Notes: generated from the sequence alone by a model not told the origin. Positions 33,866-61,977 are shown, counted from the stretch's first letter. The stretch is DNA of 64,000 bases from Gracilibacter sp. BRH_c7a (GCA_001516055.1 LOEZ01000080.1:81091-145090); one strand, 5' to 3'. Made by a program: numbers and translations.

Positions 33866-33927
33866 GTAAATTCAGGGACGGTTCTTCACTTTACATAAAG
33901 TTAGTAAAGTCAGGGACGGTTCTTTAC
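33866..33927 (+). repeat. Hairpin repeat locus 1 (two forward copies)
   Basis: GTAAATTCAGGGACGGTTCTTCAC (33866-33889) and GTAAAGTCAGGGACGGTTCTTTAC (33904-33927), 14 nt after the GGDEF stop. Confidence 0.85.
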
Positions 33928-34445
33928 TTTATAAAAAAGATAGACGGGAATTGTCTCCTACCTACGTAAAAAAGCTAAATCAAATGCGGTAAATAGCCGT
34001 TTTTTTTTGTAATGAGTATATAGGGTATAAGTAATTAGTGTAAAGAAGTGAATAAAATAGTGATATAAAGTTTAGATGATTTGGAGTTAATTGGAAATAA
34101 AAACGCAAAGGAAAAAATGCATCTGCTGACGAATAAAGAATAAAATCTAATGTAAAAAGATGGGAGAGGATAGAAATCAGATATAAGTATTTAATTCGTT
34201 TAGGGATAGTTCTGCTCCTCCTTATTTGCTTAGTTATTCCTCAAGGGCCAATAACTACACTTGCCTCCAATCAAAATCCATCCTTAGAGGAGATAGCTGG
34301 CATCTTTGACAGGGTAGGTAAAGAAAAGAAAATTCCTCCGGTTATCCTCAAAGCTATTGCTTACAAAGAATCAGGGTGGCGTCAATGGGATAGTAATGGC
34401 AATGTAGTAACGTCTTACTGGGGAAGTACCCCTAATATAGGAATA

Positions 34446-35822
34446 ATGCAAGTAGGATCGTATAATCCAAATAATGCCGACCTAGTTGCAAAACTGAAAA
34501 ATGATATAAGTTTCAATATCGAATATGGTGCTGACATTCTTCTCTCCAAGTGGAATGCAACTCCTCATATAGGTGATGGAGATCCCAATAAACTCGAGAA
34601 CTGGTATTTTGCACTCTGGGCTTATAATGGTTGGGTCACATATAACAACCCAAGTAATGCTGCAGCCGCCGGAAGAGAAACTTATCAGGAAAAAATATTT
34701 AAGCTTATTGGGTCTGAGTACTTTAAAGGGCTGGTAAATCCGAGTGCAGTTACCCCTATACCTACCAGCGTTATACCGGCAGGCACTCTCCCAACCAAAA
34801 ATACTATCTGGCAAACGCCGGAACCCATACATTACGGTGGTCTTGATGAAGTTTCTGCTCTCAGCGATTTGGAAATTAGCTTATTAGAATCGGTCAATCG
34901 CTTAGCCGGACCTGACAGGATAGAAACCGCCCTTAGAATCGCTTCACATGGCTGGCCTGATGGTAGTGAAACAGTTTTAATTGTAAGAGCAGATGATTTT
35001 CCTGACGCGTTAGCTGGAGTAGCACTTGCTAAGAAATACAATGCTCCCATTCTTCTCACTCCCAAAAATCATCTCGATTCTAGGGTTGAGGAAACTTTGA
35101 TAAAGCTTAAACCTCTAAAAGTAATCCTGCTCGGTGGACAGGATGCCTTAGGGAATCAGGTTGAGAAACGATTGAGAGAAGTACTTGACTGGACTGAAGA
35201 TTTTGAACGAATTGCTGGGAAAGATAGATTTGAAACAGCAGCCTTAGTAGCTTCAACTTTTTCATCGAACAGCGTTGTTTTAGCTACCGGCTATAATTTC
35301 CCCGATGCTTTAAGTCTAGCTTCGGCAGCAGGAGCTCAAGGTTATCCTCTACTGCTTGTAGGTTCAGACAGCCTACCCGTTGCCACCAAAGAATATTTAG
35401 AAAAAGCTAAACCTCAAACTCTGTATATCGCCGGTGGTGAAGGAATTATTTCGTCTAAGCTACTTGATAATATAGCTAAAACTTCAGGTGTGCCAGTTGA
35501 AGAGATCAAACGTTTAGCAGGTCATGATCGCTATGACACATCAATAAATATCCTGACAGAATTTTACCCTGCAGCATCGAAGATTTTCCTTGCCACAGGA
35601 CAAAATTTTCCTGATGCTCTGGCTGGCGCGGCCCTAGCCGCAAAGCAAAACGCCCCTATGCTCCTAGTTCCACCATCAGGATTAACTAATGGTTCTAGTA
35701 CAGAAAATTATTTAAAAAACCTCCCTCCAAAAGTAGAAATCGAAGTATTCGGGGGAAAAAACGCTATTTCGGATAAAGGTATCATCACGATTTTAAATCT
35801 ATTAGCCAATAACAAAATATAA
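34446..35822 (+). CDS. SLT lytic transglycosylase with three CWB2 repeats (paralog of 30897-32537); 5' end anomalous
   Basis: GIMQVG, WAYNGW and CWB2 repeats RLAGPDRIET, RIAGKDRFET, RLAGHDRYDT. The reading frame stays open back to 34137. That stretch encodes a signal peptide and the catalytic KESGW motif, but has no in-frame ATG, GTG or TTG. Confidence 0.75.
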   Translation: MQVGSYNPNNADLVAKLKNDISFNIEYGADILLSKWNATPHIGDGDPNKLENWYFALWAYNGWVTYNNPSNAAAAGRETYQEKIFKLIGSEYFKGLVNPSAVTPIPTSVIPAGTLPTKNTIWQTPEPIHYGGLDEVSALSDLEISLLESVNRLAGPDRIETALRIASHGWPDGSETVLIVRADDFPDALAGVALAKKYNAPILLTPKNHLDSRVEETLIKLKPLKVILLGGQDALGNQVEKRLREVLDWTEDFERIAGKDRFETAALVASTFSSNSVVLATGYNFPDALSLASAAGAQGYPLLLVGSDSLPVATKEYLEKAKPQTLYIAGGEGIISSKLLDNIAKTSGVPVEEIKRLAGHDRYDTSINILTEFYPAASKIFLATGQNFPDALAGAALAAKQNAPMLLVPPSGLTNGSSTENYLKNLPPKVEIEVFGGKNAISDKGIITILNLLANNKI

Positions 35823-35852
35823 ATCCTTAATAATAGTAAAGATAGTAAAGTT

Positions 35853-35965
35853 ATAAAGTTAGGGACGGTTCTTTACTTTGTAAAAAGAAAGCGGTCCTTC
35901 AAGTCGGGGACGGGTCTTTGTTTCACTCAACACAGAGGAAGCAGAAGAGCCGTCCCCTTGCTTCC
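35853..35965. repeat. Hairpin repeat locus 2 (one good forward copy plus a degenerate forward/reverse pair)
   Basis: TAAAGTTAGGGACGGTTCTTTAC at 35854-35876. The degenerate forward copy GTCGGGGACGGGTC (35903-35916) faces the reverse copy GAGCCGTCCCC (35947-35957). Confidence 0.75.
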
Positions 35966-36070
35966 TTTCCTTGCTTAAACCATGCTTCTCTAATTGTAAA
36001 TAACCCTAAATTGTAGTAAACTGATAATCGATAAAAACTAGTATTTTACTTCGAAAGGAAGTCAAGATAA

Positions 36071-37924
36071 GTGTCACACCCTAAACGCACCCTTGCTCTT
36101 ATGCTTTTTGATGCCCTTCTTGTTAATCTTGCCCTTTTCGGCAGTTTTTACCTGCGTTTTGAAGAAGGTCTGCCTCAAGAATATATACAAACTTATATTG
36201 ACGCTGCAGTAATTTCCACTGTAGCATTGCTGTTAGCTTTTCAATTTTTTGGCCTTTATAGGAATATCTGGCGGTATGCAAGTATCGGTGAAATGCTTTC
36301 GATTGTCTATGCGGTAACTATAGGCTCAGCCTTTACGGTTACTGTTGTATATTTTATTGCACCTATCAGACTGCCCCATTCCGTCAGCGTTCTGTTTTGG
36401 CTCTTAGTAATCGTCTCTATAGGTGGGTTTAGGTTCAGTCAACGACTGCGTCAAGAAAACCCCATCTTTACAGTTTGGAACAAAACTCCCAGAAAAGTCC
36501 TCATTATCGGGGCCGGGGATGCCGGAGTTCTAGCTTTGAGAGAACTCAAAAATCGAGATTTTCAAGATGGGATGCCCGTTGGATTTATTGATGACAGCGA
36601 AAGGAAGATATATCTTAATGTTCAGGGATTCCCAGTACTTGGTTCCAGAAAAGAAATACCTGAAGTTGTAGAAAAATATGGAGTAGAAGAAATAATAATA
36701 GCTATCCCCTCGGCCTCTGGTGATGCCATCAGGGAGATAGTTGAAATATGCAAAGAGACGAAAGCTTCTAACTTAAAAATATTACCGGGTGTGTATGATA
36801 TCCTCAGTGGGAAGATTACAGTAAGTTCCATCCGGGAAGTTCAGGTCGAAGATTTACTTGGACGAGATCCCGTCTGGGTTGATTTAGAGGAAGTGGCTCA
36901 TTACTTAAAAGGCCAAGTAGTCCTAGTGACAGGTGCTGGAGGTTCGATCGGTTCGGAACTCTGTAGACAGATTGTTAGATTCTCACCTTCCCAGTTAATT
37001 CTCACAGGACATGGAGAAAATAGCATCTTTGATATCCAGCAAGAACTTAAACAGCATCCGATTTTCACAGAAATTTTTGATATTAAGGATCAGCAAAAGG
37101 TCAACATTATTTTCGAAAGGTACAAGCCATCCGTTGTCTTTCATGCTGCAGCTCATAAACATGTACCACTTATGGAAGCTAATCCAGAAGAAGCTTTAAA
37201 AAATAATATTTTAGGAACAAACAATCTTGCTCAAGCCGCTGATCGAACAGGAGTTAAAACATTTGTCCTTATCTCCACTGATAAAGCAGTTAATCCAACC
37301 AGTATAATGGGAGCCTCTAAAAGAATAGCAGAGATGATTATTCAGGACTATAACTATAAATCCGAGACCAAATTCGTGGCAGTGCGGTTCGGAAACGTCT
37401 TAGGGAGCAGAGGGAGTGTAATCCCTACTTTTAAAAGTCAGATTACAGCCGGAGGTCCGGTTACAGTAACCGATCCTCGGATGACCCGGTATTTTATGAC
37501 CATACCTGAAGCTAGTCAACTTGTTATTCAAGCTGGATCCATGGCTACTGGAGGAGAGATATTCATTCTGGATATGGGTAAACCGGTTAAAATCATTGAT
37601 TTAGCCAGAGACCTTATCCGCCTTTCCGGCCTCGAACCCGATAAGGATATTAAGATAGTAATTACCGGAACCAGACCGGGAGAGAAGCTCTTTGAGGAAC
37701 TTCTTACCTCAGAAGAAGGAACCTCAGCTACAAAACATAAAAGGATTTTCATCGCTAGGCCGAACAATATTCCTTATGAGTCTATCGAACAATTAGTCCA
37801 GACAATAAGCCAACGTGGCAGTTATCTTGATAGAGACGAAATAGTTGCTGGTATAAGACAACTCTTACCTACTTTTCGCTTAGAGAAAGATAGTCTGCAG
37901 ACAGAGATGATTGTAAATAAATGA
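36071..37924 (+). CDS. Membrane-bound nucleotide-sugar 4,6-dehydratase (CapD/PglF/WbpM family)
   Basis: Four N-terminal TM helices, two Rossmann motifs (IIGAGDAG, VTGAGGSIGSEL) and the catalytic region HAAAHKHVP. GTG start. Confidence 0.88.
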   Translation: MSHPKRTLALMLFDALLVNLALFGSFYLRFEEGLPQEYIQTYIDAAVISTVALLLAFQFFGLYRNIWRYASIGEMLSIVYAVTIGSAFTVTVVYFIAPIRLPHSVSVLFWLLVIVSIGGFRFSQRLRQENPIFTVWNKTPRKVLIIGAGDAGVLALRELKNRDFQDGMPVGFIDDSERKIYLNVQGFPVLGSRKEIPEVVEKYGVEEIIIAIPSASGDAIREIVEICKETKASNLKILPGVYDILSGKITVSSIREVQVEDLLGRDPVWVDLEEVAHYLKGQVVLVTGAGGSIGSELCRQIVRFSPSQLILTGHGENSIFDIQQELKQHPIFTEIFDIKDQQKVNIIFERYKPSVVFHAAAHKHVPLMEANPEEALKNNILGTNNLAQAADRTGVKTFVLISTDKAVNPTSIMGASKRIAEMIIQDYNYKSETKFVAVRFGNVLGSRGSVIPTFKSQITAGGPVTVTDPRMTRYFMTIPEASQLVIQAGSMATGGEIFILDMGKPVKIIDLARDLIRLSGLEPDKDIKIVITGTRPGEKLFEELLTSEEGTSATKHKRIFIARPNNIPYESIEQLVQTISQRGSYLDRDEIVAGIRQLLPTFRLEKDSLQTEMIVNK

Positions 37925-37984
37925 GTTTAAAATACTTAGAAATTAAACAAAGATAACCTTGAAGAATAGAAGGAGGAAGCTTTC

Positions 37985-39340
37985 ATGCTTGAAGTCAAAC
38001 AAGTAATCACCGATCAAGATACAGTGGCTCTGGAACTGAAAAGAAAGATAGAAGGTCATAAAGCTATAATAGGAGTCATTGGGCTCGGATATGTGGGACT
38101 TCCTCTTGCCGTGGAGAAAGGTAAAGTCGGCTTTTCCGTTATCGGTTTCGATATAAACCCTGATAGAGTGGCCAAAGTTAATGCCGGAGACAATTATATC
38201 GGCGACGTTAAAGATGAAGAACTAAAAGAACTTGCTGACAGAGGCATAATAAAAGCAACCACTGACTTTTCCCAATTGGCTGATTGTGACGTCGTCATCA
38301 TATGTGTCCCCACGCCTTTAACCGTAACCCGTGATCCTGACATATCATACATGAAAGCCTCAGCGGATCAAATAGTCCATTATATTAGACCAGGACAGCT
38401 TATAACTTTAGAAAGCACGACGTATCCTGGAACTACTACAGAAGTAATACTCCCTATTCTTGAGACTTCCGGCCTCAAAGTAGGCAAAGATTTCTTTCTA
38501 GCCTTTTCTCCCGAAAGGGTTGATCCCGGAAATAAACGGTTTACCACGAAAAACACTTCTAAAGTAGTAGGAGGCGTTACTCCATACTGCTTGGAGATTT
38601 CTTATACCCTATATACTCAGACAATAGTCAATGTGGTTCCTGTCAGTTCACCGGCAGCAGCCGAACTTACAAAAGTCTTTGAAAATACTTATAGAGCAGT
38701 TAATATAGCTTTGGTAAATGAAATGATGCTGTTATGTGATCGTATGGGACTGGATGTTTGGGAAATCGTCGAAGCAGCTTCCACCAAACCCTTCGGTATT
38801 CATACTTTCTATCCAGGACCAGGAGTCGGAGGTCATTGCATCCCGATCGATCCTTTCTATCTCACCTGGAAAGCAAGAGAGTATAACTTTCATACCCGAT
38901 TCATTGAACTGGCCGGGGAAATAAATGTAGAAGTATCATATTATGTAGTCAATAAAGTATATAGAGCATTGAACGGAGTGAAAAAGAGTATCAAGGATGC
39001 TAACATCCTTATCCTTGGAGTCGCTTATAAGAAAGATATCGATGATGTCCGTGAATCGCCGGCCTTGATAATCATAGAACGGTTGCGGCAAGAAGGTGCC
39101 AACATCACCTATCATGACCCCTATATTTCAGAAATCCAGCCTCATGGAGGCTGTGAAATCCATTTGAAAAGCGTTGATCTTACACCCCAAGCCCTCGCCG
39201 CCTCAGACTGCGTCCTTATCCTTACAGACCATAGTAAGGTAGACTACGACCAAGTGGTCGAACAAGCTCAACTCATAGTGGACACCCGTAACGCTACGAA
39301 AAATGTCCTTGCCCATAGAGAAAAAATCTTTAAAATCTAG
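37985..39340 (+). CDS. UDP-N-acetyl-D-glucosamine/mannosamine 6-dehydrogenase (WbpA/WecC family)
   Basis: Nucleotide-sugar dehydrogenase with GVIGLGYVGLPLA, catalytic GGHCIPIDP, and C-terminal AYKKDIDDVRESPA. Confidence 0.88.
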   Translation: MLEVKQVITDQDTVALELKRKIEGHKAIIGVIGLGYVGLPLAVEKGKVGFSVIGFDINPDRVAKVNAGDNYIGDVKDEELKELADRGIIKATTDFSQLADCDVVIICVPTPLTVTRDPDISYMKASADQIVHYIRPGQLITLESTTYPGTTTEVILPILETSGLKVGKDFFLAFSPERVDPGNKRFTTKNTSKVVGGVTPYCLEISYTLYTQTIVNVVPVSSPAAAELTKVFENTYRAVNIALVNEMMLLCDRMGLDVWEIVEAASTKPFGIHTFYPGPGVGGHCIPIDPFYLTWKAREYNFHTRFIELAGEINVEVSYYVVNKVYRALNGVKKSIKDANILILGVAYKKDIDDVRESPALIIIERLRQEGANITYHDPYISEIQPHGGCEIHLKSVDLTPQALAASDCVLILTDHSKVDYDQVVEQAQLIVDTRNATKNVLAHREKIFKI

Positions 39341-39392
39341 TGGAATTTTAGACAGAAGAACCGTCTCTCTGTCTCTTGAGGAGTGGTATATT

Positions 39393-40451
39393 TTGATAAC
39401 ATCTAAGGAAAAGCTGCGTTTTGGAATTATAGGCTGTGGACGAATAGCTCCCAAACATGCAGAATCTATAATCGCTATCCCTGAAGCTGAACTTGTCGCT
39501 GTCTGTGATATTATCTCGGAGAAAGCAGAAAGGTTTGCGCATCTTTATAATGCTGATCCTTATCTAGATTATAAAGAGCTTCTTCAAAGAGAAGATATAG
39601 ATATCGTTACAATAGCTACCCCTAGTGGCATTCATGCAGAAATCGGAATAGAGGCGGCTAAGGCAGGCAAGCATGTCATGGTGGAAAAACCCATGGCAAT
39701 GACCTTAAAGCAAGCCGACTATCTCATTAAAGCCTGCCAGGAATATAACGTTAAACTAAGCGTAATTCACCAAAACCGCTATAATAAATCAATCAAAATC
39801 TTGAGAGAAGCCATGGAAAAAGGACGATTCGGAAAACTAACCCATGGACAAGCGACTATCAGGTGGAATCGGAATGAAGATTATTACATCCAAGCTCCCT
39901 GGAGAGGAACCAAGCTTCAAGATGGTGGAGTATTAATGAATCAATCCATCCATAACATCGATCTTCTGCAATGGATGATGGGACCTGTAGAGTCTGTTTT
40001 CGGGTATACCACCACAGCTCTACGTCAGATTGAAATGGAAGACGTTGCTGGTGCAGTAATTAGGTTTAAGAACGGAGCAATCGGCCTGATAGAGGCAGCT
40101 ACAACCATATACCCCAAAAATATAGAGGAAACTTTAAATATCTTTGGAGAGACAGGTTCGGTTGTAATAGGTGGAATTGCAGTTAATAGAGTTGAGGTTT
40201 GGGAATTTCCAGAAAGTGAAGGAGAGAAGAATCAGATTTTTTCAGCTCAGGAAAGCGATCCCCCTACGGTATACGGGTTCGGGCACCGAGAGATAATAGA
40301 GGATATGATTAAATCCGTTAAATCAAACACCTCTCCTCCGATAAACGGGGAGGAAGGGCGTAAAGCTCTGGAGATTATCTTGGCCATCTATAAATCTCAG
40401 GAGAGCGGACTTCCAGTTAAGCTACCACTATTAGACGACTTTGCTGATTAG
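39393..40451 (+). CDS. Gfo/Idh/MocA oxidoreductase (WbpB-like)
   Basis: TTG 39393 lies 9 nt after GAGGAG and gives ...KLRFGIIGCGRIAPKH at the N-terminus, followed by an EKPMA motif. The track start 39303 overlaps the upstream gene by 38 nt. Confidence 0.82.
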   Translation: MITSKEKLRFGIIGCGRIAPKHAESIIAIPEAELVAVCDIISEKAERFAHLYNADPYLDYKELLQREDIDIVTIATPSGIHAEIGIEAAKAGKHVMVEKPMAMTLKQADYLIKACQEYNVKLSVIHQNRYNKSIKILREAMEKGRFGKLTHGQATIRWNRNEDYYIQAPWRGTKLQDGGVLMNQSIHNIDLLQWMMGPVESVFGYTTTALRQIEMEDVAGAVIRFKNGAIGLIEAATTIYPKNIEETLNIFGETGSVVIGGIAVNRVEVWEFPESEGEKNQIFSAQESDPPTVYGFGHREIIEDMIKSVKSNTSPPINGEEGRKALEIILAIYKSQESGLPVKLPLLDDFAD

Positions 40452-40563
40452 ACGATTTTTGGGAAAACAAGGAAGCATTAGGTAATTAATCCCTTGTTAC
40501 TTAGAATTGCACTCCTCTTTTCGGTCCAACATACTCTATTACTACCCGGAACCGAAAAGGAGA

Positions 40564-40812
40564 ATGCCTATGATGCCACCTTATCAAGGACCTGGACATG
40601 GGATTCCACATACTATGCCGGACTATAATCGTGCTATCATGCACGTTATGCCAGCGATTAGACAAAGCTTAAGAGAAGCTAGGCCGGTTGGTGTTAAACA
40701 CGCGGTCACCGAAGCAGCCCTTATATCCTATCTTATAGGAAAGGGGTTTGATTTCTACCAAGCACTACGTATTGTGGAGTCATGGGAGAGGAATGAATCA
40801 TTTCCAATGTAA
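40564..40812 (+). CDS. Hypothetical small protein
   Basis: AAAGGAG RBS before the ATG cluster at 40564/40570/40573. P/G/H-rich N-terminus and a helical C-terminus. No recognised family. Confidence 0.5.
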   Translation: MPMMPPYQGPGHGIPHTMPDYNRAIMHVMPAIRQSLREARPVGVKHAVTEAALISYLIGKGFDFYQALRIVESWERNESFPM

Positions 40813-40850
40813 AGATGGCTACCCATGGTCAAAAAAGCAAAAAATGATTT

Positions 40851-40881
40851 AATATGGCTATAGCCTATTAGATTATTTTTT
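40851..40881. terminator. Putative bidirectional terminator
   Basis: AATATGGC-TATA-GCCTATT hairpin with an A run upstream and T6 downstream, between convergent small genes. Confidence 0.5.
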
Positions 40882-40882
40882 G

Positions 40883-41029
40883 CTATTCTTCTACCTCTTT
40901 AGCTGATTTCTCATAAATAGTGAGTACCGGCTCATCGGTTAAATCATTACTGCACGTTGGGCATATCCATTCCCTTTCAGAAGCAGAATATGAATACTCT
41001 TTGCACCGGGGGCAATACTTTCTGAACAT
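40883..41029 (-). CDS. Small zinc-ribbon protein (48 aa), absent from the ORF track
   Basis: Translation: MFRKYCPRCKEYSYSASEREWICPTCSNDLTDEPVLTIYEKSAKEVEE. CPRC...CPTC pair. AGGAAG lies 8 nt upstream of the ATG. Confidence 0.45.
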   Translation of the reverse strand: MFRKYCPRCKEYSYSASEREWICPTCSNDLTDEPVLTIYEKSAKEVEE

Positions 41030-43398: not shown

Positions 43399-44271
43399 TT
43401 GAATAGTACAATACATTCCAGTGCCGTTATCGCTCAAAGTGCTGTTATAGAGGATAAAGTTAAGATTGCGCCCTTCTGCGTCATCGGAGAGGACACCGTG
43501 ATCGGGGAAGGGACTATCCTAGGTTCAGGCTGCGTCCTTGGAGAAGGTATTAAAATCGGAGCCAATTCTCGCCTTGGTAATCATGTTACCTTAGATAAAC
43601 AGGTAACTTTAGATAAGGAAGTGACCATAGGAGACCATACCGCTGTCTATTCCGGAACTGACATTGGAGAAGGTACATATATAGGAAGTAACTCATCTAT
43701 CGGCAGACCACCCAGAGCTGCCTCCACAAGCACAGTCAAAAACCTGGGTGATTTATCCCCACTTACAGTTGGCAGCCGGAGTATTATAGGGTGCTCAGCT
43801 GTCCTATATGCGGGGACAGTCCTTGGTGAAGCTGTATTCGTCGGAGACAGGGCACTCATCCGGGAACGCTGTGTTCTAGGGCCTAAGGTCGTGGTAGGAA
43901 GTGGTTGCGCTGTTGAGAATGACACTATGATAGGGGCTTATACCAAGATTCAAACAGGTTCTTATATTACTGCCTATATGGAGATTGAGGAGAGAGTCTT
44001 CATCGCTCCCATGGTAACTACCACCAATGATAACTATATGGGTAGAACAGAGAAACGTTTTCAATATATTAAAGGGGCAACTATTAGAAGAGGGGCACGC
44101 ATCGGTGGGGGAGCCATACTTCTGCCCAGTGTAGAAATAGGGGAAGAGACCTTTGTAGCGGCAGGAGCCCTAGTCACTAAAGATACACCTTCCGCTAAAA
44201 TGGTTAAAGGTTTTCCAGCTAGAATTGTAAAAAACGTACCGGAAGAAGAACTGGTAAAAAATAACGATTAA
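43399..44271 (+). CDS. Hexapeptide-repeat (left-handed beta-helix) acetyltransferase, WbpD/PglD-type role
   Basis: TTG start behind GAAGGAGGG. Continuous hexapeptide repeats over 290 aa. Confidence 0.78.
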   Translation: MNSTIHSSAVIAQSAVIEDKVKIAPFCVIGEDTVIGEGTILGSGCVLGEGIKIGANSRLGNHVTLDKQVTLDKEVTIGDHTAVYSGTDIGEGTYIGSNSSIGRPPRAASTSTVKNLGDLSPLTVGSRSIIGCSAVLYAGTVLGEAVFVGDRALIRERCVLGPKVVVGSGCAVENDTMIGAYTKIQTGSYITAYMEIEERVFIAPMVTTTNDNYMGRTEKRFQYIKGATIRRGARIGGGAILLPSVEIGEETFVAAGALVTKDTPSAKMVKGFPARIVKNVPEEELVKNND

Positions 44272-45547: not shown

Positions 45548-45591
45548 GAGAACCGTCCTGCAGTAAAGAAAAGAACCGTCCCTGACTTTAC
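45548..45591 (-). repeat. Hairpin repeat locus 3 (reverse orientation, one degenerate plus one good copy)
   Basis: GAGAACCGTCCTGCAGTAAAG (45548-45568) and AAGAACCGTCCCTGACTTTAC (45571-45591), 11 nt after the aminotransferase stop. Confidence 0.8.
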
Positions 45592-45611: not shown

Positions 45612-46787
45612 ATGAGAGTTCTAGTGATATCGCATTTGTATCCTTCTTCTATAAATCCCACGTATGGGATCTCCGTTCATAAACAGGTTAATGCTTTGAA
45701 GAATCAAGGATGTGAAGTTAAAGTACTTGCGCCTGTTCCATTTACCCCTTGGCCTCTTCCCCTTTTGCGGAAGAAATGGGAGGACTATGCCAATACTCCT
45801 CGTAAAGATTTCATAGCAGGTTTGGAAGTTCTTTACCCTCGTTACTTGGTATTCCCACGTTCTTTACTGCTGGAGTATTCTGGAATCTTCATGTATCTGG
45901 GACTCAGGAAAATCATACATAGAATCTACGAAGAATTCCCATTTGACCTTATCCATGCTCATGTAGCCTTACCTGATGGACAAGCAGCCTATTATTTGAG
46001 AAAGAAATACAATGTCCCTATCGTAGTAACCATCCACGGCCAGGATTTTCAGTCTACTATTAACAAAAGCTTGAATTGTCGTAAATCATTATTCAAACTC
46101 TTAAGCTCAGCCGATAAAATAATTACAGTTAGCACGAAGCTTAAAAATTTAGTCATAGACCAACCTTTTAGTTCGAAAATAACAGTTATTAATAATGGCA
46201 TAGATTCAGAACATCTTTCAGATACTCTACCGAAGACTGTTCATAACGGCAAAAGAATTATAAGCATTTCCAATCTTAATAAAACCAAAGGAATAGACCT
46301 GAATCTGGGAGCTATGTCTTCTTTGGTCAGGGAATATCCTGGCCTTGAGTATTACATTGTAGGTGACGGAGAAGAAAGAAATAACCTGGAAACCTTGAGG
46401 GATCAATTAAACCTTAATGATAACGTCTTTTTCTTAGGGAGGTTGGACCATCAGCAAGCTATGCTTAAGCTTACCGAAGCCGATATCTTTTGCCTCCCGT
46501 GCTGGCAAGAGGGTTCTGAACTAGCGTATATTGAAGCAATGTCTCTCGGTAAACCAATAATAGCCGTAGAAGGAATCTCGGATATTGTGCACCATAATCA
46601 CAATGGATTATTAGTCAAACCTCAGGATGTTGATGATGTTATCCAAGCCCTAGGTACTCTCATACGTAATCCTGCTCAAGCCATATCACTAGGGGAGGCA
46701 GGGAGGAAGACGGTATTAGAAGGACTAACATGGAAAGATAATGCCCGTAAAACGAGAGAAATATATAGGCAGCTTCTAACTAACTAG
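45612..46787 (+). CDS. Glycosyltransferase family 4 (GT-B)
   Basis: MRVLVISHLYP start. The C-terminal region matches the EX7E pattern (QEGSELAYIEAMSLGKP). Confidence 0.8.
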   Translation: MRVLVISHLYPSSINPTYGISVHKQVNALKNQGCEVKVLAPVPFTPWPLPLLRKKWEDYANTPRKDFIAGLEVLYPRYLVFPRSLLLEYSGIFMYLGLRKIIHRIYEEFPFDLIHAHVALPDGQAAYYLRKKYNVPIVVTIHGQDFQSTINKSLNCRKSLFKLLSSADKIITVSTKLKNLVIDQPFSSKITVINNGIDSEHLSDTLPKTVHNGKRIISISNLNKTKGIDLNLGAMSSLVREYPGLEYYIVGDGEERNNLETLRDQLNLNDNVFFLGRLDHQQAMLKLTEADIFCLPCWQEGSELAYIEAMSLGKPIIAVEGISDIVHHNHNGLLVKPQDVDDVIQALGTLIRNPAQAISLGEAGRKTVLEGLTWKDNARKTREIYRQLLTN

Positions 46788-55533: not shown

Positions 55534-55577
55534 CGGTTGCCCCTCCTTTCCTTTACCTTAGTGATCTCAGAAGGAAA

Positions 55578-56198
55578 CTAGCGTACTTTCCTCAATTCAG
55601 GGTTCCTAGCAAATTCTAATAAGAAAGCCAAAAGGACAGAAGAGAGAAGCCCCAGTATTCCTGATAAAATAACTTTAGCCATTTTACCGGCAGAAGATAA
55701 TGGCGAAGTTGGGATGACCGCAGGATCTACAAGTAGCGCGACATCACCTTTTTCGATTTCTGCTAAACGTTCGATAATGGTATCGGCGGTAATATTACAG
55801 ATTTCTGCAGCTTTTTCAGGATTACGATGTCGGAACTTAACATCCAGAATCTGTGTTTCAGGAACTTTGGAGACTTGCAGGCCTGAGAGAATCATACCTG
55901 CAGAAGTTTTTTCAGGAAGCTGAACGGCGACCCTTTCAGCGATAATTCCGGTTTTAGCGATATTCATGTAGGTATCGACTAAATCCTTATTTGCCTGTTG
56001 TAGATAAAAGTATTCCCGACCAACTTCATCTCCCACTCGTTTACCAACAGCAATCTTAGCTCTCGCCTCATAAATAGGTTCATTATCCTTGAAAACATAG
56101 ATTGAACTAAGGGCAACAGCAATGATTGGAATTATGAGAATGAGTATCCAGCGTTTGCGAATAATTGCAAAATAATCGAACAATGTAATATCTCCCAT
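55578..56198 (-). CDS. Polysaccharide chain-length determinant (Wzz/PCP-2b-like, CapA/YveK type)
   Basis: 206 aa. N- and C-terminal TM helices flank a soluble domain. Typical start DITLFDYFAIIRKRW. GGAGGAAAAG RBS. Confidence 0.75.
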   Translation of the reverse strand: MGDITLFDYFAIIRKRWILILIIPIIAVALSSIYVFKDNEPIYEARAKIAVGKRVGDEVGREYFYLQQANKDLVDTYMNIAKTGIIAERVAVQLPEKTSAGMILSGLQVSKVPETQILDVKFRHRNPEKAAEICNITADTIIERLAEIEKGDVALLVDPAVIPTSPLSSAGKMAKVILSGILGLLSSVLLAFLLEFARNPELRKVR

Positions 56199-56271
56199 GT
56201 TCTTTTCCTCCGATCTTTTCCCTTATGACAAATAATTGTACCATTCTTCAGTTTACAACATAACATACTGC

Positions 56272-56359
56272 TTGACAACTTCAGTTCAGACGGTTAGATA
56301 ACTTAAATATGCCCATATCTAACTCAAGCTTTGCAAAAAAAAGTTCTTAATAGTAAAAT
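56272..56359 (+). promoter_or_regulatory. Two candidate sigma-A promoters with an intervening hairpin, upstream of the aminotransferase/sugar-transferase operon
   Basis: TTGACA-17-TAGATA (56272-56300) and TTGCAA-17-TAAAAT (56331-56359). An 8-bp inverted repeat GTTAGATA/TATCTAAC lies at 56293-56323. Confidence 0.35.
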
Positions 56360-56435
56360 GGATTATATTACTTAATCAAGGAAAAAATGCTATCCTATAT
56401 ACATGCTAATTTTGCTTTAGGAAAGGATGATATCC

Positions 56436-57599
56436 ATGGGTGATAATCGGAGAACAGAGTTTCTTCCGTATGCCATCCCCCTAATTGAACAGGATGATAT
56501 AGATGCAGTGGTGGATAGCCTGAGATCCAACTGGGTTACGAAGGGCCCCAAAACTGTAGAATTTGAGAAAAGGTTTGCAGAGTTCGTTGGTTCCAAACAT
56601 GCGATAGCAGTAAACTCCTGTACAGCAGGATTACATACGGCCTTGGTTGCTGCCGGAATTGGGGATGGAGATGAAGTGATTACTACCCCCATGACCTTTG
56701 CTGCTTCAGCCAATGTTGTGATTCATGCCGGAGCAACTCCCGTATTTGTGGATATTGACCCTGTAACCATGAATATTGACTATACCAAGATTGAAGAGAA
56801 GATCACCCCAAGGACAAAGGCGATTATTCCAGTACATATTGCAGGACTGCCCTGTCAGATGGATGAGATTTTAGATATAGCACGTAAACATAATCTTTTT
56901 GTTTTAGATGATGCAGCGCATGGGGTCTATACTCAGTATAAAGGGAAAATGATCGGTTCGATCGGCGATGCGACAGCGTTTTCCTTCTATGCTACTAAGA
57001 ATCTTGTGACAGGAGAAGGTGGGATGATTACCACCAATAATGATGAACTCGCTGATAGGATGCGGGTTTACAGCCTGCACGGCATGAGTCGCAATGCCTG
57101 GAATCGTTATTCAACCGAAGGTTCTTGGTTTTATGAGATCAATTACCCAGGCTATAAATACAATATGACCGATATCCAAGCAGCCCTTGGCATGACCCAG
57201 CTGGCAAAGCTTGATTCTATGCAGACTCGAAGAGAGCTTATTGCGAAACGCTATCAAGAAGCTTTCTCCAGGCTGAGTGAGATCGAAGTCCCTGCCGATA
57301 GAGATTATGCCCGACATGCTTGGCATCTGTATATCATAAAGTTGAATCTGGAAAAAATATCTATTAATAGATCCGAGTTTATTGAGCAGCTTAAAGCAGA
57401 AAACATCGGAACCAGCGTACATTTTATCCCTGTTCATCTTCATCCTTACTATCGAGAAACCTATGGGTATAAACGTGGTGATCTGCCTCAGGCAGAAGCC
57501 GTCTTTGATCGAATTGTTTCTCTCCCTCTCTTCCCGAAGATGAGCGATCAAGATGTTGAAGATGTTATCGCTGCTGTCCAGCGAATCATAGAAATCTAA
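56436..57599 (+). CDS. DegT-family PLP aminotransferase (PglE/EpsN-like)
   Basis: FLPYAIPLIEQDDIDAV N-terminus and FSFYATKNLVTGEGG (PLP lysine). ATG 56436 is 8 nt after AGGAAAGGA. Confidence 0.88.
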   Translation: MGDNRRTEFLPYAIPLIEQDDIDAVVDSLRSNWVTKGPKTVEFEKRFAEFVGSKHAIAVNSCTAGLHTALVAAGIGDGDEVITTPMTFAASANVVIHAGATPVFVDIDPVTMNIDYTKIEEKITPRTKAIIPVHIAGLPCQMDEILDIARKHNLFVLDDAAHGVYTQYKGKMIGSIGDATAFSFYATKNLVTGEGGMITTNNDELADRMRVYSLHGMSRNAWNRYSTEGSWFYEINYPGYKYNMTDIQAALGMTQLAKLDSMQTRRELIAKRYQEAFSRLSEIEVPADRDYARHAWHLYIIKLNLEKISINRSEFIEQLKAENIGTSVHFIPVHLHPYYRETYGYKRGDLPQAEAVFDRIVSLPLFPKMSDQDVEDVIAAVQRIIEI

Positions 57600-57618
57600 A
57601 TTCTGTTATCTGGAGTGT

Positions 57619-58236
57619 TTGTTTTTGTTTGCGAAACGTCTTTTGGATCTTCTCATAGCCATACCCCTTCTTATTGTCATATCACCACTATGGATTTTTA
57701 TCGTTCTATGGATTAAAGTGGACTCTCCTGGCTCCGCCATCTTTCGTCAGCAAAGAGTAGGACGCAAAGGAGATCTATTTACCATTTATAAGTTTCGGAC
57801 TATGGTACCGAATGCGGAGGGGGTTATGAAGGCCAAGATTGAACAGCTGAAGCAAGAAGGTAAGTTCGACCCGGACAACTTTGTCTTTCAGGAGAAGAAT
57901 GACCCCCGTATTACCAACAGCGGCAGATTCTTAAGAAAGACAAGCCTGGATGAATTGCCTCAGCTATTGAATATCATTAATGGAAGTATGAGCCTTGTCG
58001 GTCCACGCCCGGAAGTGCCAGAGATCGTCGATAAATATACACCAGAACAGCGTAGCAGATTGAACATGCCCCCGGGAGTAACCGGACTGGCGCAAATTAA
58101 CGGAAGAAGTGACTTGCCTCTTACCCAGACTCTCAATTATGATATGCAATATGTAAAGGACTGGTCTATCTGGCTTGATGTTAAGATCCTTTGGAAGACA
58201 TTCTTTGTAGTGTTTACCGGGAAGGATGCGTATTAA
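57619..58236 (+). CDS. Undecaprenyl-phosphate sugar phosphotransferase (small PglC/WcaJ-C-terminal type, initiating enzyme)
   Basis: One N-terminal re-entrant helix. Motifs KFRTM, DELPQLLN, SLVGPRP and PGVTGLAQ. Confidence 0.88.
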   Translation: MFLFAKRLLDLLIAIPLLIVISPLWIFIVLWIKVDSPGSAIFRQQRVGRKGDLFTIYKFRTMVPNAEGVMKAKIEQLKQEGKFDPDNFVFQEKNDPRITNSGRFLRKTSLDELPQLLNIINGSMSLVGPRPEVPEIVDKYTPEQRSRLNMPPGVTGLAQINGRSDLPLTQTLNYDMQYVKDWSIWLDVKILWKTFFVVFTGKDAY

Positions 58237-58237
58237 G

Positions 58238-59725
58238 TTGTTATTCAATTCGGCTACATTCTTAATGTTTTTCCCATTCGTTTCATTAGTGTATTTCTTA
58301 ATTCCGCATAGAGTTCGTTGGGCATGGCTGCTGCTAAGTAGTTATGTTTTCTATATGTCTTGGAACCCCAAATACGCTATCTTGTTAGCCACATCCACTC
58401 TGATTACGTATGCTAGCGGCATATTAATAGCTAAAGCGAATGAATTAAGAGATAGAGAAAAAGCTACACGAATGAAGAAAACTTGGGTAGCTTTAAGTCT
58501 GCTGTCTAATCTAGGGATACTTGTTCTCTTTAAATATATAGATTTTTTTGGTACCAACCTGATTAGGCTGTCTCTATGGCTTGATTTAGCCATTCCAATA
58601 CCTAACTTTAATATATTGCTTCCGATTGGAATTTCGTTTTATACCTTTAAAGCTCTCAGTTATACCATTGATGTTTACCGGAACGACGTAGAACCCGAGA
58701 CACATCTCGGAAGATATGCCTTATTTGTATCATTCTTTCCCCAATTAGTTGCAGGACCAATCGAAAAATCCAAGACCTTTCTCCACCAGTTCCAAGAAGA
58801 GCATTTCTTTGATTATACAAGAGTGAGAGATGGTCTTTTATTAATGCTATGGGGATTTTTCCAGAAAGTTGTCGTCGCTGATAGATTAGCAATCTTGGTT
58901 AATACGGTATATAACGACCCCGCTTCTTATAGAGGATTTGCGATTGTTATCGCTACTGTATTTTTTGCCTTGCAAATCTATTGTGATTTCAATTCATATT
59001 CGGATATTGCAAGAGGTTGTGCGCAAGTTATGGGGTTTAGATCTTCAAGGAATTTCGGACAACCTTACCTATCCAGATCGATAAGAGAATTCTGGGCAAA
59101 CTGGCATATTACCCTCTGCAGCTGGTTCAAGGATTATCTCTATATCCCGCTTGGTGGGAACCGCTGTAGTAAGCTTAGAAGTTATTTTAATATATTCGTT
59201 GTGTTTGTAGTCAGTGGTATATGGCATGGTGCAACAATAAACTTCCTCATTTGGGGCGGATTGCATGGATTATACCGTGTTGGGGAAGATTTACTCCGAC
59301 CTCTGAAAGACAAGCTTGTCAGACTTTTAAACATCAGAACTGAGACCTTAAGTATGAACCTGTTCCAAGGATTCCTGACTTTTTCCTTGGTTTGTTTTGC
59401 TTGGATCTTTTTTAGAGCCAATACCTTTTCCGAAGCGGTTCTATTACTAAATAATATGCTTTACTTTAACCCGGAGATTTTTACCCGCGGCTTGATTTTC
59501 GAACTGGGACTAGATTGGAAAGAATTCATCGTCGCTCTCCTCGGAATCTTCATTATCATCTTGGGCAACATCATGCAACGCACAAAACGTTTTGGGTTTG
59601 ACATTAGCGAATACCATATTGGTTTCCGATGGACTATTTACGTTACCGCAATAGTGTTTATCTTGGTTTTCGGAATCTATGGGCCGGATTTTGATGCTCA
59701 GCAGTTTATTTACTTACAATTTTGA
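58238..59725 (+). CDS. MBOAT-family membrane O-acyltransferase (AlgI/DltB/PatA-like)
   Basis: TTG 58238 gives the canonical (M)LFNSATFLMFF start. The conserved FWANWHITL and SGIWHG histidine motifs are present. Confidence 0.85.
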   Translation: MLFNSATFLMFFPFVSLVYFLIPHRVRWAWLLLSSYVFYMSWNPKYAILLATSTLITYASGILIAKANELRDREKATRMKKTWVALSLLSNLGILVLFKYIDFFGTNLIRLSLWLDLAIPIPNFNILLPIGISFYTFKALSYTIDVYRNDVEPETHLGRYALFVSFFPQLVAGPIEKSKTFLHQFQEEHFFDYTRVRDGLLLMLWGFFQKVVVADRLAILVNTVYNDPASYRGFAIVIATVFFALQIYCDFNSYSDIARGCAQVMGFRSSRNFGQPYLSRSIREFWANWHITLCSWFKDYLYIPLGGNRCSKLRSYFNIFVVFVVSGIWHGATINFLIWGGLHGLYRVGEDLLRPLKDKLVRLLNIRTETLSMNLFQGFLTFSLVCFAWIFFRANTFSEAVLLLNNMLYFNPEIFTRGLIFELGLDWKEFIVALLGIFIIILGNIMQRTKRFGFDISEYHIGFRWTIYVTAIVFILVFGIYGPDFDAQQFIYLQF

Positions 59726-59733
59726 GGGATATT

Positions 59734-60702
59734 ATGATTAAAAAAGCACTAATTAAAAGTATATTACTGCTCACCCTGCTCGGGCTTATTCTTTCTGTCC
59801 TTAATCCTATTTTTATACTAAAAGAGGGTCATCGCAACAAGCTATATCAAGGATTATACGAACATCAAGGAGACAGTTTAGATGTAGTATTCTTAGGTTC
59901 AAGTCATATGATTAACTCATTCAATCCGAATATTCTTTGGGATAAATATGGTTTTACCAGCTTTAACTACGGTACTGGGGGAGAACCAATTGATGTCACC
60001 TATTATCTTCTGAAAGAAGTACTCAAGTTCCATGATAATCCCATAGTAGTAATTGATTTATATTACTTGGGTCTGACAGATGAATACGGCAATGAAGAGT
60101 ATGTGCGTTATGTTCTTGATAATATGAAGATGTCGGTTAATAAAATCGATGCTATCTTCCATACTACACCCAGCCATAATCGTCTGAGCTTTCTATTGCC
60201 TATCCTAAAATACCATGGACGTTGGAAGGAGTTATCCGAACAAGATTTCAAGTTCGACGTTTTTAGTACCTATTATGCTAAGGGGTATAGTGCCGGAGAG
60301 AATATTTACGGTAAAAACAATACCTTTTCCAATCACACAAAGGAAACAGCAGAAATCCCTCCTAAAGCAAAACTATATCTCGATAAGATAATAGAGCTTT
60401 CCAAAGAAGAAGGATTTGAACTTATCTTCACCCTTGCTCCCCATGACTATAACAGCACTTTAGAAATACCATCCTGGCACCCAGAACCTGCAAAGATGTT
60501 TAACCAGGTGGCCGAAATCGCCGAAGACAACAATATCCCTTTTATCAACTACAACAATCTATTTGATGACTTAGACTTCGACTTCAAGACCGATATGTAT
60601 AATGCAGGACATATGAATATCTGGGGCTCCAACAAAATCAACGCCCACTTCGGAGAATTCCTCCATAACAACTACCACCTACCTGACCACCGCAAAAAGT
60701 AA
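59734..60702 (+). CDS. Extracytoplasmic partner of the MBOAT (DltD/AlgJ/SGNH-like acyl-transfer protein)
   Basis: N-terminal anchor, FLGSSHM (Ser-His block) and NAGHMN motifs. Translationally coupled to the MBOAT gene. Confidence 0.65.
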   Translation: MIKKALIKSILLLTLLGLILSVLNPIFILKEGHRNKLYQGLYEHQGDSLDVVFLGSSHMINSFNPNILWDKYGFTSFNYGTGGEPIDVTYYLLKEVLKFHDNPIVVIDLYYLGLTDEYGNEEYVRYVLDNMKMSVNKIDAIFHTTPSHNRLSFLLPILKYHGRWKELSEQDFKFDVFSTYYAKGYSAGENIYGKNNTFSNHTKETAEIPPKAKLYLDKIIELSKEEGFELIFTLAPHDYNSTLEIPSWHPEPAKMFNQVAEIAEDNNIPFINYNNLFDDLDFDFKTDMYNAGHMNIWGSNKINAHFGEFLHNNYHLPDHRKK

Positions 60703-60707
60703 AGCCA

Positions 60708-60799
60708 GTAAAGTCAGGGACGGTTCTTTACTTTACTTTTTTTATCTGAACTGCTTATTGAAAGCAGTTATTCTTTTAAAGTTAGGGACGGTTCTTTAC
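60708..60799 (+). repeat. Hairpin repeat locus 4 (two forward copies inside a tandemly duplicated ~70-nt module)
   Basis: GTAAAGTCAGGGACGGTTCTTTAC (60708-60731) and TAAAGTTAGGGACGGTTCTTTAC (60777-60799). Each is followed by a CTGAA(C/T)TGCTT...AGCAGTT hairpin. Confidence 0.85.
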
Positions 60800-60813
60800 T
60801 TTAATTTTCACTG

Positions 60814-60838
60814 AATTGCTTAGTTTAGCAGTTTTTTC
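60814..60838 (+). terminator. Rho-independent terminator ending the O-acylation operon
   Basis: AATTGCT-TAGTTT-AGCAGTT (one G-U pair) followed by TTTTTT. A sister hairpin AACTGCTT/AAGCAGTT lies at 60749-60769. Confidence 0.6.
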
Positions 60839-61011
60839 TTTATAGGAACAAAATTATTGTAATATTAAACAGGGATAAAGTAAAAGACGTCGAATTATCT
60901 CAAAAAAATAAACTTAATTAGGCCTAAAGGATACACTTTTCTTTATCTTTAGATTTTACATAAACCGTCTCTGGCTCTAATAAAGGTGCAACAATAGAAG
61001 GGTTGATAATA

Positions 61012-61914
61012 ATGGAGAAGAATACCATTATGGTTGTCGATGACCAAACTCTTAATTTATATTTATTAAAAGATGTACTAAATGAATATAAAGTTATCTT
61101 AGCAAAAGATGGAGAACAAGCTCTCAAAATTCTGGAAGAAGAGATTTTACCTGATCTTATATTACTTGACATTCTTATGCCTGGAATGAGTGGATTTGAA
61201 GTAATTAAGATCATTAAAGATAATGACAGGACAAGAGATATCCCGGTTATTTTTATCACCGGTCTTAATTCGGCCGAGGACGAAGAACAAGGCTTAAATC
61301 TTGGTGCCATGGATTATATCGTGAAGCCCTTTAACCCAGCCATCGTTCGTGCCCGGATTAGAAACACGCTGAAATATAGAAACCAACAAAAAATGCTGGA
61401 AACTATGGTACATATAGATGGTTTAACCGAGATTCCCAACCGCAGAAATTTTGATATCATCCTAGATAGAGAATACAAGAGTGCAGTTCGGAATAAAAGA
61501 TGGCTTTCTCTAATCATGATAGATGTTGACCAGTTCAAACACTATAATGATAATTATGGCCACGCAAAAGGTGACGAAGCACTTATTAGAATTGCTAAAA
61601 CAATAAAGTCATGCCTGAAACGTCCTGATGATTTTGTTGCTAGATATGGTGGAGAAGAATTTGCAGTTATACTTCCGGATACTGATGAAGGCGGAGGAAG
61701 AAAAGTCGCAGAAAATATTCGTCAGGCAATCAATAGTCTTAGAATAAAACATCAGAAACCAGAAGGTGATCCTTGGCTAACAATAAGCCTAGGTAGTTAT
61801 AGTTCAATGCCTAACGCTTTCCGAAAGGAGAATAGTCTTATTGAAAAAGCTGACGCCTGCTTGTACAAAGCAAAGCACAACGGTAAAAATTGCACGGTAT
61901 GTGAACAGGAATAA
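61012..61914 (+). CDS. Response-regulator diguanylate cyclase (REC-GGDEF, PleD/WspR-like)
   Basis: REC domain (VVDDQ ... DLILLDILMPGMSG ... KP). GGEEF active site with the I-site RPDD five residues upstream (RPDDFVARYGGEEF). Confidence 0.88.
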   Translation: MEKNTIMVVDDQTLNLYLLKDVLNEYKVILAKDGEQALKILEEEILPDLILLDILMPGMSGFEVIKIIKDNDRTRDIPVIFITGLNSAEDEEQGLNLGAMDYIVKPFNPAIVRARIRNTLKYRNQQKMLETMVHIDGLTEIPNRRNFDIILDREYKSAVRNKRWLSLIMIDVDQFKHYNDNYGHAKGDEALIRIAKTIKSCLKRPDDFVARYGGEEFAVILPDTDEGGGRKVAENIRQAINSLRIKHQKPEGDPWLTISLGSYSSMPNAFRKENSLIEKADACLYKAKHNGKNCTVCEQE

Positions 61915-61915
61915 A

Positions 61916-61977
61916 GTAAAGAACCGTCCCTGACTTTACTAAACAAGAATAAAGTAAAGAACCGTCCCTAACTTTAC
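61916..61977 (-). repeat. Hairpin repeat locus 5 (two reverse copies in a 38-nt tandem)
   Basis: GTAAAGAACCGTCCCTGACTTTAC (61916-61939) and GTAAAGAACCGTCCCTAACTTTAC (61954-61977). The gene stop TAA (61912-61914) lies in the extended repeat arm ATAAAGTAAAG. Confidence 0.85.

Follow-up and report, generated by a model that had tools for sequence, protein, structure and literature searches.

Short hairpin repeats recur in the intergenic DNA of a 64,000-nt stretch of the Gracilibacter sp. BRH_c7a genome (GCA_001516055.1, LOEZ01000080.1:81091-145090), which we call the window. The repeats share a conserved 30-nt unit, GTAAAGTYAGGGACGGTTCTTTACTTTACA, with an invariant 11-nt loop, GGGACGGTTCT. With a probability that we put at roughly 0.8, they are the non-coding partners of a REP-associated tyrosine transposase (RAYT; REP, repetitive extragenic palindromic). 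They would form a family like REPs and REPINs (REP doublets forming hairpins), of the TIRtron/TIRYT type (Group 1, subclass 2.1, a placement made by domain architecture and motifs rather than with the profiles of the authors who defined these groups). The initial annotation of the window had viewed the repeats as a structured element resembling REPs or miniature inverted-repeat transposable elements (MITEs), and this view is borne out by a RAYT gene that lies between inverted units and by eight further homologue loci with the same arrangement.

The RAYT gene and its flanking repeats

The sequence of the window is contained, with 100% identity, in JGI contig Ga0247259_100038 (257 kb), and the window's glycosyltransferase (45612-46787) is encoded both on this contig and on near-identical contigs from rock-porewater metagenomes. 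Loci fetched from this and related DNA are cited here by numbers beginning with L. A RAYT/IS200-type transposase, which the initial annotation had proposed to look for elsewhere in the genome, is present on the same contig: P0006, a 277-aa Y1/HUH transposase, is encoded at L025 10001-10834, 9.16 kb to the left of window position 1. Inverted units stand on either side of its gene, at L025 9950-9979 (+) and 10871-10900 (-). In the window itself tblastn found no Y1/HUH RAYT gene, and across the window and all fetched loci it found no second RAYT copy in any genome. A screen of all open reading frames (ORFs) in the fetched loci for the HUH...Y motif returned one candidate, at L022 2054-2887, which is the orthologue of P0006 in Gracilibacter sp. 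LH_M27 (78% identical). This protein matches Pfam Y1_Tnp (E 4.5e-18) and scores 87.2 bits against the NCBIfam model for REP-associated tyrosine transposases (NF047646, cutoff 80) and 25 bits, under the cutoff of 55, against the NCBIfam IS200 model. At L022 a unit ends 22 nt ahead of the ATG and an inverted unit overlaps the stop codon.

A homologue search returned 1460 proteins of approximately 275 aa, mostly from Clostridia and often named RayT by their sources. The residues H60 and H62 (HuH) and Y119-x3-N123-P124 are invariant in 60 homologues, and the class 2 catalytic signature (HuH + Y-x3-NP) is present. The AlphaFold model of P0006 (mean pLDDT 85) finds its best structural match in 4ER8, the E. 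coli TnpA-REP bound to a REP hairpin, with an E-value of 9e-8, a target TM-score of 0.77, and a root-mean-square deviation of 2.2 Å over 150 columns. The IS608 and ISDra2 transposases follow (Foldseek E ~1e-4), and a sequence profile also ranks 4ER8 first (E 9e-4). The C-terminal region (141-272) is all-helical in the model and probably contains a helix-turn-helix, as these approximately 140 residues show sub-threshold matches to HTH_23 (E 0.02-0.06), Bac_DnaA_C (E 0.06), and Sigma70_r4 (E 0.001-0.01).

Inverted hairpins flank the RAYT gene in all nine homologue loci examined (51-100% identity), and the loop GGGACGGTTCT is found in each; one Sporomusa copy deviates, only just outside the loop. 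The nine loci come from Gracilibacter relatives, Formimonas (55% identity to the RAYT), Sporomusa (51%), Anaerovirgula (57%), and two further metagenome-assembled genomes (MAGs) labelled Desulfobacteraceae and Anaerolineaceae (51-52%). The flanking inverted repeats are 29-30 nt in length. The upstream repeat ends approximately 22-25 nt before the start codon in four Gracilibacter-type loci and approximately 40-56 nt before it in Formimonas, Sporomusa, and Anaerovirgula, and the downstream repeat overlaps the stop codon or lies within approximately 43 nt after it. In the distant loci the core GGGACGGTTCT is unchanged and the arms read TTCAATTC/GAATTGAA, GCAAG/CTTGC, and CAATTC/GAATTG. The orthologues at L022, L028, and L029 (72-86% identity) have the same neighbouring genes and the same bracketing, and the RAYT gene is syntenic in four genomes, with a beta-eliminating lyase, tRNA_edit, DUF218, and an acetyltransferase as neighbours. 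The loop is conserved over taxa labelled Clostridia, Negativicutes, Chloroflexota, and Desulfobacterota. Because it stays constant around RAYT genes in distant taxa in which the family has not been amplified, the sequence appears to be tied to the enzyme rather than to a host RNA function.

Two other origins were considered and set aside. A plasmid-borne element was rejected, as the RAYT relatives found on plasmids are all less than 60% identical. A phage origin was rejected as well, since five exact 16-mer matches in viral contigs lack the arms and their number is, by a rough estimate, no greater than expected by chance. In the MAG UBA4821 the RAYT homologue (L020 7237-7794) is frameshifted, being split into three reading frames, and is likely a pseudogene; its stop codon lies within a unit, and this genome yielded one exact repeat copy.

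Structure of the repeat unit

An alignment of 58 copies from the window and related DNA defines the conserved unit of 30 nt, beyond whose bounds the information content falls sharply. The unit starts with GTAAAG, ATAAAG, or GCAAAG and ends with TTTACA. Its stem comprises approximately nine pairs, in which positions 1-9 pair with positions 21-29. In a fixed-register alignment of 18 copies with distinct arms, the covariation score for this pairing was 0.513 compared with 0.254 ± 0.036 in shuffled alignments, and none of 500 shuffles reached 0.513; slid stem registers scored 0.08-0.19, and all nine stem pairs show changes on both sides. Because the arms covary in the 1-9/21-29 register, the element is, as judged from its sequence, a hairpin with a variable stem and an invariant loop. 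The initial annotation had described a 24-nt unit with a 6-bp stem and a 12-nt loop. This description has to be revised, as the copy alignment gives 30 nt and the pairing of positions 1-6 with 19-24 shows no covariation, in contrast to the strong covariation of the longer stem. In the shorter stem, a change at position 2 is not matched by one at position 23.

The Gracilibacter genomes also hold subfamilies with other arms, among them GCAAAGT/ACTTTGC, AGACAG/CTGTCT, GTGACA/TGTCAC, and GGAAGCA/TGCTTCC. We also observed that a second arm subfamily, (G)AGACAG/CTGTCT(C) or GTGACA/TGTCAC, occurs with the same loop in both Gracilibacter genomes, at window positions 39350-39374 and at L018 1537-1560, L018 5372-5396, and L013 7526-7640. 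Its stem is GC-richer and reaches up to 11 bp (11 bp in L013, with AGACAG/CTGTCT arms).

As forward-strand RNA a single unit has only moderate stability (-9 kcal/mol, z = -3.3), and inverted doublets are very stable, the one at L001 folding at -51.8 kcal/mol. The window copies are not followed by a T-run and their stem is AT-rich. An intrinsic terminator would need a GC-rich stem and a T-run, and the unit is therefore not a canonical intrinsic terminator. Separate terminator-like hairpins do lie downstream of units, at 33986-34000 and 60749-60769. A promoter was also considered, since the 3' TTTACA could be a -35 box, yet no conserved -10 element follows it. A CRISPR-like array was rejected because the 30-nt units, with periods of 38 and 68 nt, leave spacers of only 8-38 nt and no cas genes lie nearby.

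Distribution and gene context

The exact pattern GTAAAG-N12-CTTTAC has four matches in the window, compared with 0.01 expected, and the 24-mer with up to three mismatches has eight, compared with none expected. These start at 33866, 33904, 35853, 60708, and 60776 on the plus strand and lie at 45568-45591, 61916-61939, and 61954-61977 on the minus strand; the match at 33904 is exact and that at 33866 has two mismatches. A covariance model built on 41 distinct copies scores the eight strong window copies at 45.9-53.3 bits (E 1e-11 to 1e-13). Five of these units are on the plus strand, which is presumed to be the leading strand, and three are on the minus strand. The covariance model gave no comparable match in window positions 1-33800, so that the absence of intergenic copies from the left 33.8 kb, as first described, is upheld. 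An Rfam scan of the whole window returned no family at the gathering score. The count of eleven copies in five intergenic spots was likewise confirmed, as eight near-perfect and three degenerate copies. The latter are of unequal quality, since the copy at 35898-35927 is marginal, that at 45549-45559 is a partial core, and that at 35937-35965 (-) is a variant hairpin with different arms. All five stop codons named beside these spots (33852, 35822, 45537, 60702, and 61914) are correctly placed, but a sixth repeat locus, at 39350-39374 on the minus strand, had been overlooked.

In the window and the non-redundant related loci together, we counted 83 copies in 59 clusters, none of which falls inside an ORF as called by a simple longest-ORF rule. 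The initial observation that copies follow stop codons holds for the family as a whole: where the 3' end of a gene faces a cluster, the median distance is 17 nt, and where a 5' end does so it is 74 nt (Mann-Whitney p = 3e-8). Of 43 co-directional spacers, 32 have their cluster closer to the upstream stop codon (p = 0.002), and divergent spacers, with 4 of 59 clusters, are under-represented. Units point either way with respect to the gene upstream of them. Inverted pairs always have their TTTACA ends pointing inward, which is the polarity seen around the RAYT gene.

A restriction of the family to the cell-surface and cyclic di-GMP (c-di-GMP) half of the window, which had been proposed, does not hold. 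Over the 20 kb that adjoin the window on its left, units are found after a nitroreductase-family gene, on both sides of the RAYT gene, and between acetyltransferase and cation antiporter genes, and more singles, direct tandems, and inverted doublets are present on other contigs from this organism. Nor do all copies mark junctions between gene modules, because those at 39.35 and 45.5 kb have polysaccharide genes of one operon-like run on both sides. The left half of the window, which has no copies, consists largely of a long fatty-acid-synthesis operon, ribonucleotide reductase, and similar genes; given a density of approximately 8 clusters per 84 kb, the lack of any in 33.8 kb is only marginally unusual (P ~0.04 by a Poisson estimate). 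Direct tandems with periods of 38 and 68 dominate the window. The fetched loci contain approximately 11 inverted doublets of 43-65 nt, ten in LH_M27 and one at L024, and perfect inverted doublets occur in LH_M27 and at L039 and L040 of the window's organism, with none inside the window. Scanning metagenomes with the 24-mer gave seven stretches, all from one sample. Among species-representative genomes, exact matches to a 22-mer were limited to three MAGs: Gracilibacter sp. LH_M27 had 22 stretches, and Clostridiales UBA4821 and a MAG labelled Syntrophomonadaceae had one each.

Window genes are 75-85% identical to those of LH_M27 at the nucleotide level, and window positions 28.8-64 kb are syntenic with LH_M27 contig 78. 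Where the window has two units, at 33.9, 60.7, and 61.9 kb, LH_M27 has one, and at 35.9 and 45.5 kb the partner units differ between the two. The single presence/absence difference is an extra copy in LH_M27 directly after the orthologue of 30897-32537. At the corresponding place in the window, after the CWB2/SLT gene, an unrelated long perfect hairpin, gataccgactgagagagcc...ggctctctcagtcggtatc, occupies 32540-32620. At orthologous sites the core of the unit is identical and the flanking intergenic DNA is almost unalignable, which suggests that sequence constraint or homogenisation acts on the units. In LH_M27 the same 65-nt doublet is found at L001 1173 and L003 4767 in flipped orientation, and the two halves of each LH_M27 doublet have common arm variants. 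No target-site duplication was seen at any of the 11 doublets. A comparison of near-identical strains for presence/absence polymorphism, which the initial annotation had recommended, showed no difference at the repeat loci in four contigs (L030-L033), and hence no sign of recent mobility; indels were confined to coding genes. One of these contigs, L030, comes from another sample and corresponds to window positions 35626-56787 at 99.86% identity. It carries small indels that split a polysaccharide-synthesis gene (36071-37924) and a hexapeptide transferase gene (43399-44271) into two ORFs each; either frameshifts at strain level in surface-polysaccharide genes or errors of assembly could account for these splits.

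The leftmost window locus begins 5 nt past the PAS-GGDEF stop codon (33850-33852) with an extra left arm, GTAAATTCA (33857-33865, +), in the pattern of arm duplication described below. A unit, GTAAATTCAGGGACGGTTCTTCACTTTACA (33866-33895, +; 45.9 bits, E 6.6e-11), a further extra left arm, TAAAGTTA (33896-33903, +), and a second unit (33904-33933, +; 53.1 bits) follow, the two units forming a direct tandem with a period of 38. Past the stop codon of a CWB2 gene (35820-35822), two extra left arms, GTAAAGATA and GTAAAGTT (35836-35852, +), precede the unit at 35853-35882 (+; 49.7 bits), which has a copy at the orthologous LH_M27 site (L021 6107-6136). The degenerate copy at 35898-35927 (+), with the core GGGGACGGGTCTT, scores 11.8 bits (E 2.4) and was recognised also by its fold and by a core scan. 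It folds into a long hairpin with the variant hairpin at 35937-35965 (-), which has GGAAGCA/TGCTTCC arms, an 8-bp complementary stem, and the loop AGGGGACGGCTCTTC with one mismatch in the core, and which was used in the covariation test. The variant hairpin at 39350-39374 (-), with AGACAG/CTGTCT arms and the loop AGAGACGGTTCTT, lies 10 nt past a stop codon (39338-39340), and its orthologous LH_M27 site has GTGACA/TGTCAC arms. At the next locus the partial core AGGACGGTTCT (45549-45559, -) is a remnant of a second copy (partial covariance-model match, 11.4 bits) beside the unit at 45562-45591 (-; 49.5 bits). This unit takes up most of the 74-nt spacer between an aminotransferase and the glycosyltransferase gene and is kept at the orthologous LH_M27 site (L018 5455-5484).

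Further to the right, stop codons fall within the repeat sequence itself. The extra left arm GTAAAGCCA (60699-60707, +) holds the stop codon of the upstream gene (60700-60702) and is followed by a unit at 60708-60737 (+; 53.3 bits). Outside the repeat, a terminator-like hairpin, AACTGCTT..AAGCAGTT, with a T-rich tail lies downstream at 60749-60769 (+), which places the unit within a presumed 3' untranslated region (3' UTR). The unit at 60776-60805 (+; 50.6 bits) is the second member of a 68-nt direct duplication; within 60708-60840 the duplicated segment comprises the unit and the terminator-like hairpin, then ATTGCTTAG... A unit on the opposite strand (61910-61939, -; 52.0 bits) overlaps the REC-GGDEF stop codon (61912-61914), and it forms a direct tandem with a period of 38 with the unit at 61948-61977 (-; 52.7 bits), next to which an extra left arm, TTAAAGTTA as read on the minus strand, occupies 61978-61986 (-). 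The REC-GGDEF gene (61003-61914) is thereby bracketed by inward-facing units, two plus-strand units upstream and two minus-strand units overlapping or following its stop codon, with the same polarity as around the RAYT gene. The bracket is kept in LH_M27 with one unit on each side (L023 1237-2344). The window also holds two paralogous CWB2 genes (30897-32537, CWB2/SLT, and 34446-35822) and two GGDEF diguanylate cyclase genes (the PAS-GGDEF gene at 32959-33852 and the REC-GGDEF gene), and these genes are interleaved with the repeat loci.

Many units, as at the extra left arms of the window, are preceded by one to three truncated copies of their own 5' part. The truncated copies are 8-11 nt and occasionally 14-18 nt in length; all of them begin anew at position 1 and break off at or within the G-run that opens the loop. 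Outside the window they were seen at L003 3420-3450, L023 1215-1245, L036 ~10893-10915, and L049 downstream of 2378. The occurrence of arm duplication in Gracilibacter, Anaerovirgula, and another MAG makes it a trait of the family, which may stem from hairpin slippage or may be a footprint of cleavage and rejoining.

Relation to known systems and interpretation

Although the initial annotation left the family unnamed, the class to which it would belong has been described. TIRtrons, or TIRYTs, are RAYT-like genes flanked by long inverted repeats with a common GGGGWSAS motif, and their families are dispersed and moderately abundant, with single, dimeric, and clustered copies (Di Nocera et al. 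2013, PMC3733652). These elements make up subclass 2.1, which corresponds to Bertels' Group 1 and has long proteins with a C-terminal helix-turn-helix like DnaA_C or HTH_23 (Quentin et al. 2018, PMC6006769). Group 1 RAYTs also occur in Clostridia, with few repeated 16-mers associated (Bertels et al. 2017, PMC5581495). The system described here likewise has a Y1 RAYT-like gene between inverted repeats of approximately 30 nt rather than GTAG-tagged REPs, repeats dispersed as singles, dimers, and clusters, and a protein of approximately 275 aa with the Y-x3-NP motif and a C-terminal extension that may resemble a helix-turn-helix. Its counterpart of GGGGWSAS is GGGGACGG or AGGGACGG, which agrees at seven of eight positions, with G for A at position 7, when compared with the motif rather than with the published repeats. 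Quentin et al. saw no REP-like structures in subclass 2.1, whereas the repeats of the present family are hairpins with an invariant 11-nt loop and covarying arms. In the searchable literature we found no paper on this repeat family in Gracilibacter or its clostridial relatives. What appears to be new is a covarying hairpin with an invariant loop that is kept in distant hosts and amplified in a clostridial lineage.

The system can also be compared with better-studied ones. Like the REPs and BIMEs of E. coli, which accompany TnpA-REP (RAYT, YafM), the units are short extragenic palindromes found singly or in pairs and mostly downstream of genes, and they bracket an apparently single-copy Y1/HUH gene whose product is predicted to have an N-terminal fold like that of 4ER8. 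Whereas the E. coli REP stem is GC-rich and its loop small and variable, the present units have an AT-rich stem and a large conserved loop, and P0006 differs from E. coli TnpA-REP (approximately 18% identity) in an extra C-terminal domain of approximately 140 aa. The doublets are built as in Pseudomonas REPINs (Bertels and Rainey 2011, PMC3116915), a short spacer separating two inverted units and the whole forming a long hairpin. As in REPINs, too, one doublet recurs at several sites in both orientations and apparently replicates as a unit, and the RAYT gene is syntenic and appears to be vertically inherited. The Pseudomonas REPINs, in contrast, belong to RAYT Groups 2 and 3, and perfect doublets are absent from the window. 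With IS200/IS605 elements (IS608 and ISDra2) the system has in common the absence of target-site duplications and a similar fold, and it would also share with them the HUH/Y1 chemistry and the recognition of subterminal hairpins on single-stranded DNA. It departs from them in that the units are non-coding and far shorter and that the transposase gene appears to be single-copy and syntenic rather than multi-copy.

Single-strand cleavage and rejoining by TnpA-REP and IS200/IS605 transposases is established biology. By analogy, the RAYT would recognise the hairpin and loop on single-stranded DNA, cut adjacent to the hairpin, and rejoin the unit elsewhere. Such cutting and rejoining could spread and homogenise units without target duplications, leaving singles, direct tandems, and inverted doublets, the last of which would be REPIN-like hairpins of approximately 65 nt. 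Copies would survive at the least harmful sites, mostly in the first few tens of nucleotides past stop codons and ahead of terminators, and those that persist are probably transcribed into 3' UTRs. Effects on mRNA stability or translation termination would then be a secondary consequence, and interference with termination is plausible for a unit within approximately 15 nt of a stop codon.

Several points weigh against this reading. Mobilisation of the repeats by P0006 is suggested by adjacency and homology only. In LH_M27, whose genes are diverged by approximately 20-25%, the sites orthologous to the six window loci are all occupied as well, and long-term retention, possibly with a host function, would explain such shared occupancy no less well than recent mobility. 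The palindromes lack the GTAG (or CGTC) end tag that marks canonical REPs, CGTC being found only inside the loop on the complementary strand, and a published survey of subclass 2.1 detected no REP-like structures beside its genes (PMC6006769). The Pfam matches behind the C-terminal helix-turn-helix are all sub-threshold. Furthermore, the sequences for the covariation test were partly picked after their arms had been inspected, and the counts for this organism rest on approximately 84 kb of contiguous sequence and a few contigs.

The retention of copies leads to the most serious alternative, which we nevertheless consider unlikely, namely that the units are host-selected 3'-UTR or operon-internal elements (stabilisers, RNase barriers, modulators of translation termination, or sites for a host protein) and that the RAYT is their historical source or incidental. 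E. coli REPs have secondary roles of this sort. The occupied LH_M27 sites, with flanks diverged beyond alignment, fit this explanation, as do the median distance of 17 nt to the stop codon, the units that overlap a stop codon, the terminator-like hairpins downstream of units at 33986-34000 and 60749-60769, and the RNA fold of the single unit. An element that acts in RNA, however, is hard to reconcile with units in both orientations relative to the upstream gene (five forward and three reverse in the window) or with G-T wobbles in the stem that become C-A mismatches in the RNA of the other strand. The missing T-run, the variation in copy number between species at the same site, and the recurrence of the loop around distant RAYT genes where the family has not been amplified also speak against it.

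Much less probable is an origin of the units as MITEs or solo ends of a conventional insertion sequence with a DDE-type transposase. Inverted doublets of 53-65 nt do resemble small MITEs, and DDE transposase genes lie within a few kb at two unrelated loci (L034 and L050), yet none is bracketed by units in the approximately 300 kb examined, whereas a Y1 transposase gene, the only one bracketed consistently, is so placed in nine of nine loci. Moreover, none of the 11 doublets shows a target-site duplication, and single units are as common as doublets. The neighbourhood of two GGDEF genes, a CWB2 wall protein gene, and polysaccharide genes in the window might suggest operators of a regulator of cell-surface and c-di-GMP genes. 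This we regard as the least credible of the explanations, because copies lie downstream of genes and not at promoters, with 4 of 59 clusters in divergent spacers, and occur also beside the nitroreductase-family, acetyltransferase, and RAYT genes just outside the window; a near-perfect identity over 22 nt is likewise unlike the usual degeneracy of operators.

If the repeats are indeed RAYT partners, a broader proposal can be made, although we hold it only tentatively and consider it rather doubtful. The hairpin with the loop GGGACGGTTCT might be what the largest RAYT class (Group 1/subclass 2.1) generally uses as its DNA substrate, a role that would so far have gone unrecognised, and the Gracilibacter lineage might be a natural case in which this substrate has given rise to a REP/REPIN-like population within Bacillota. 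The left-arm duplications in Gracilibacter, Anaerovirgula, and the further MAG might then be footprints of cleavage and rejoining.

For the annotation of Gracilibacter-like genomes, dozens of hairpins after stop codons are to be expected. Some of these provide the stop codon themselves, and they can break assemblies and confuse gene calling. The repeats offer a concrete candidate DNA partner for a large and biochemically uncharacterised class of RAYTs with a C-terminal domain resembling DNA-binding domains. They also document a REP/REPIN-like population in clostridia, while most work has been done on Proteobacteria. In kind the system is not new: it represents the known REP/RAYT systems in a clostridial form.

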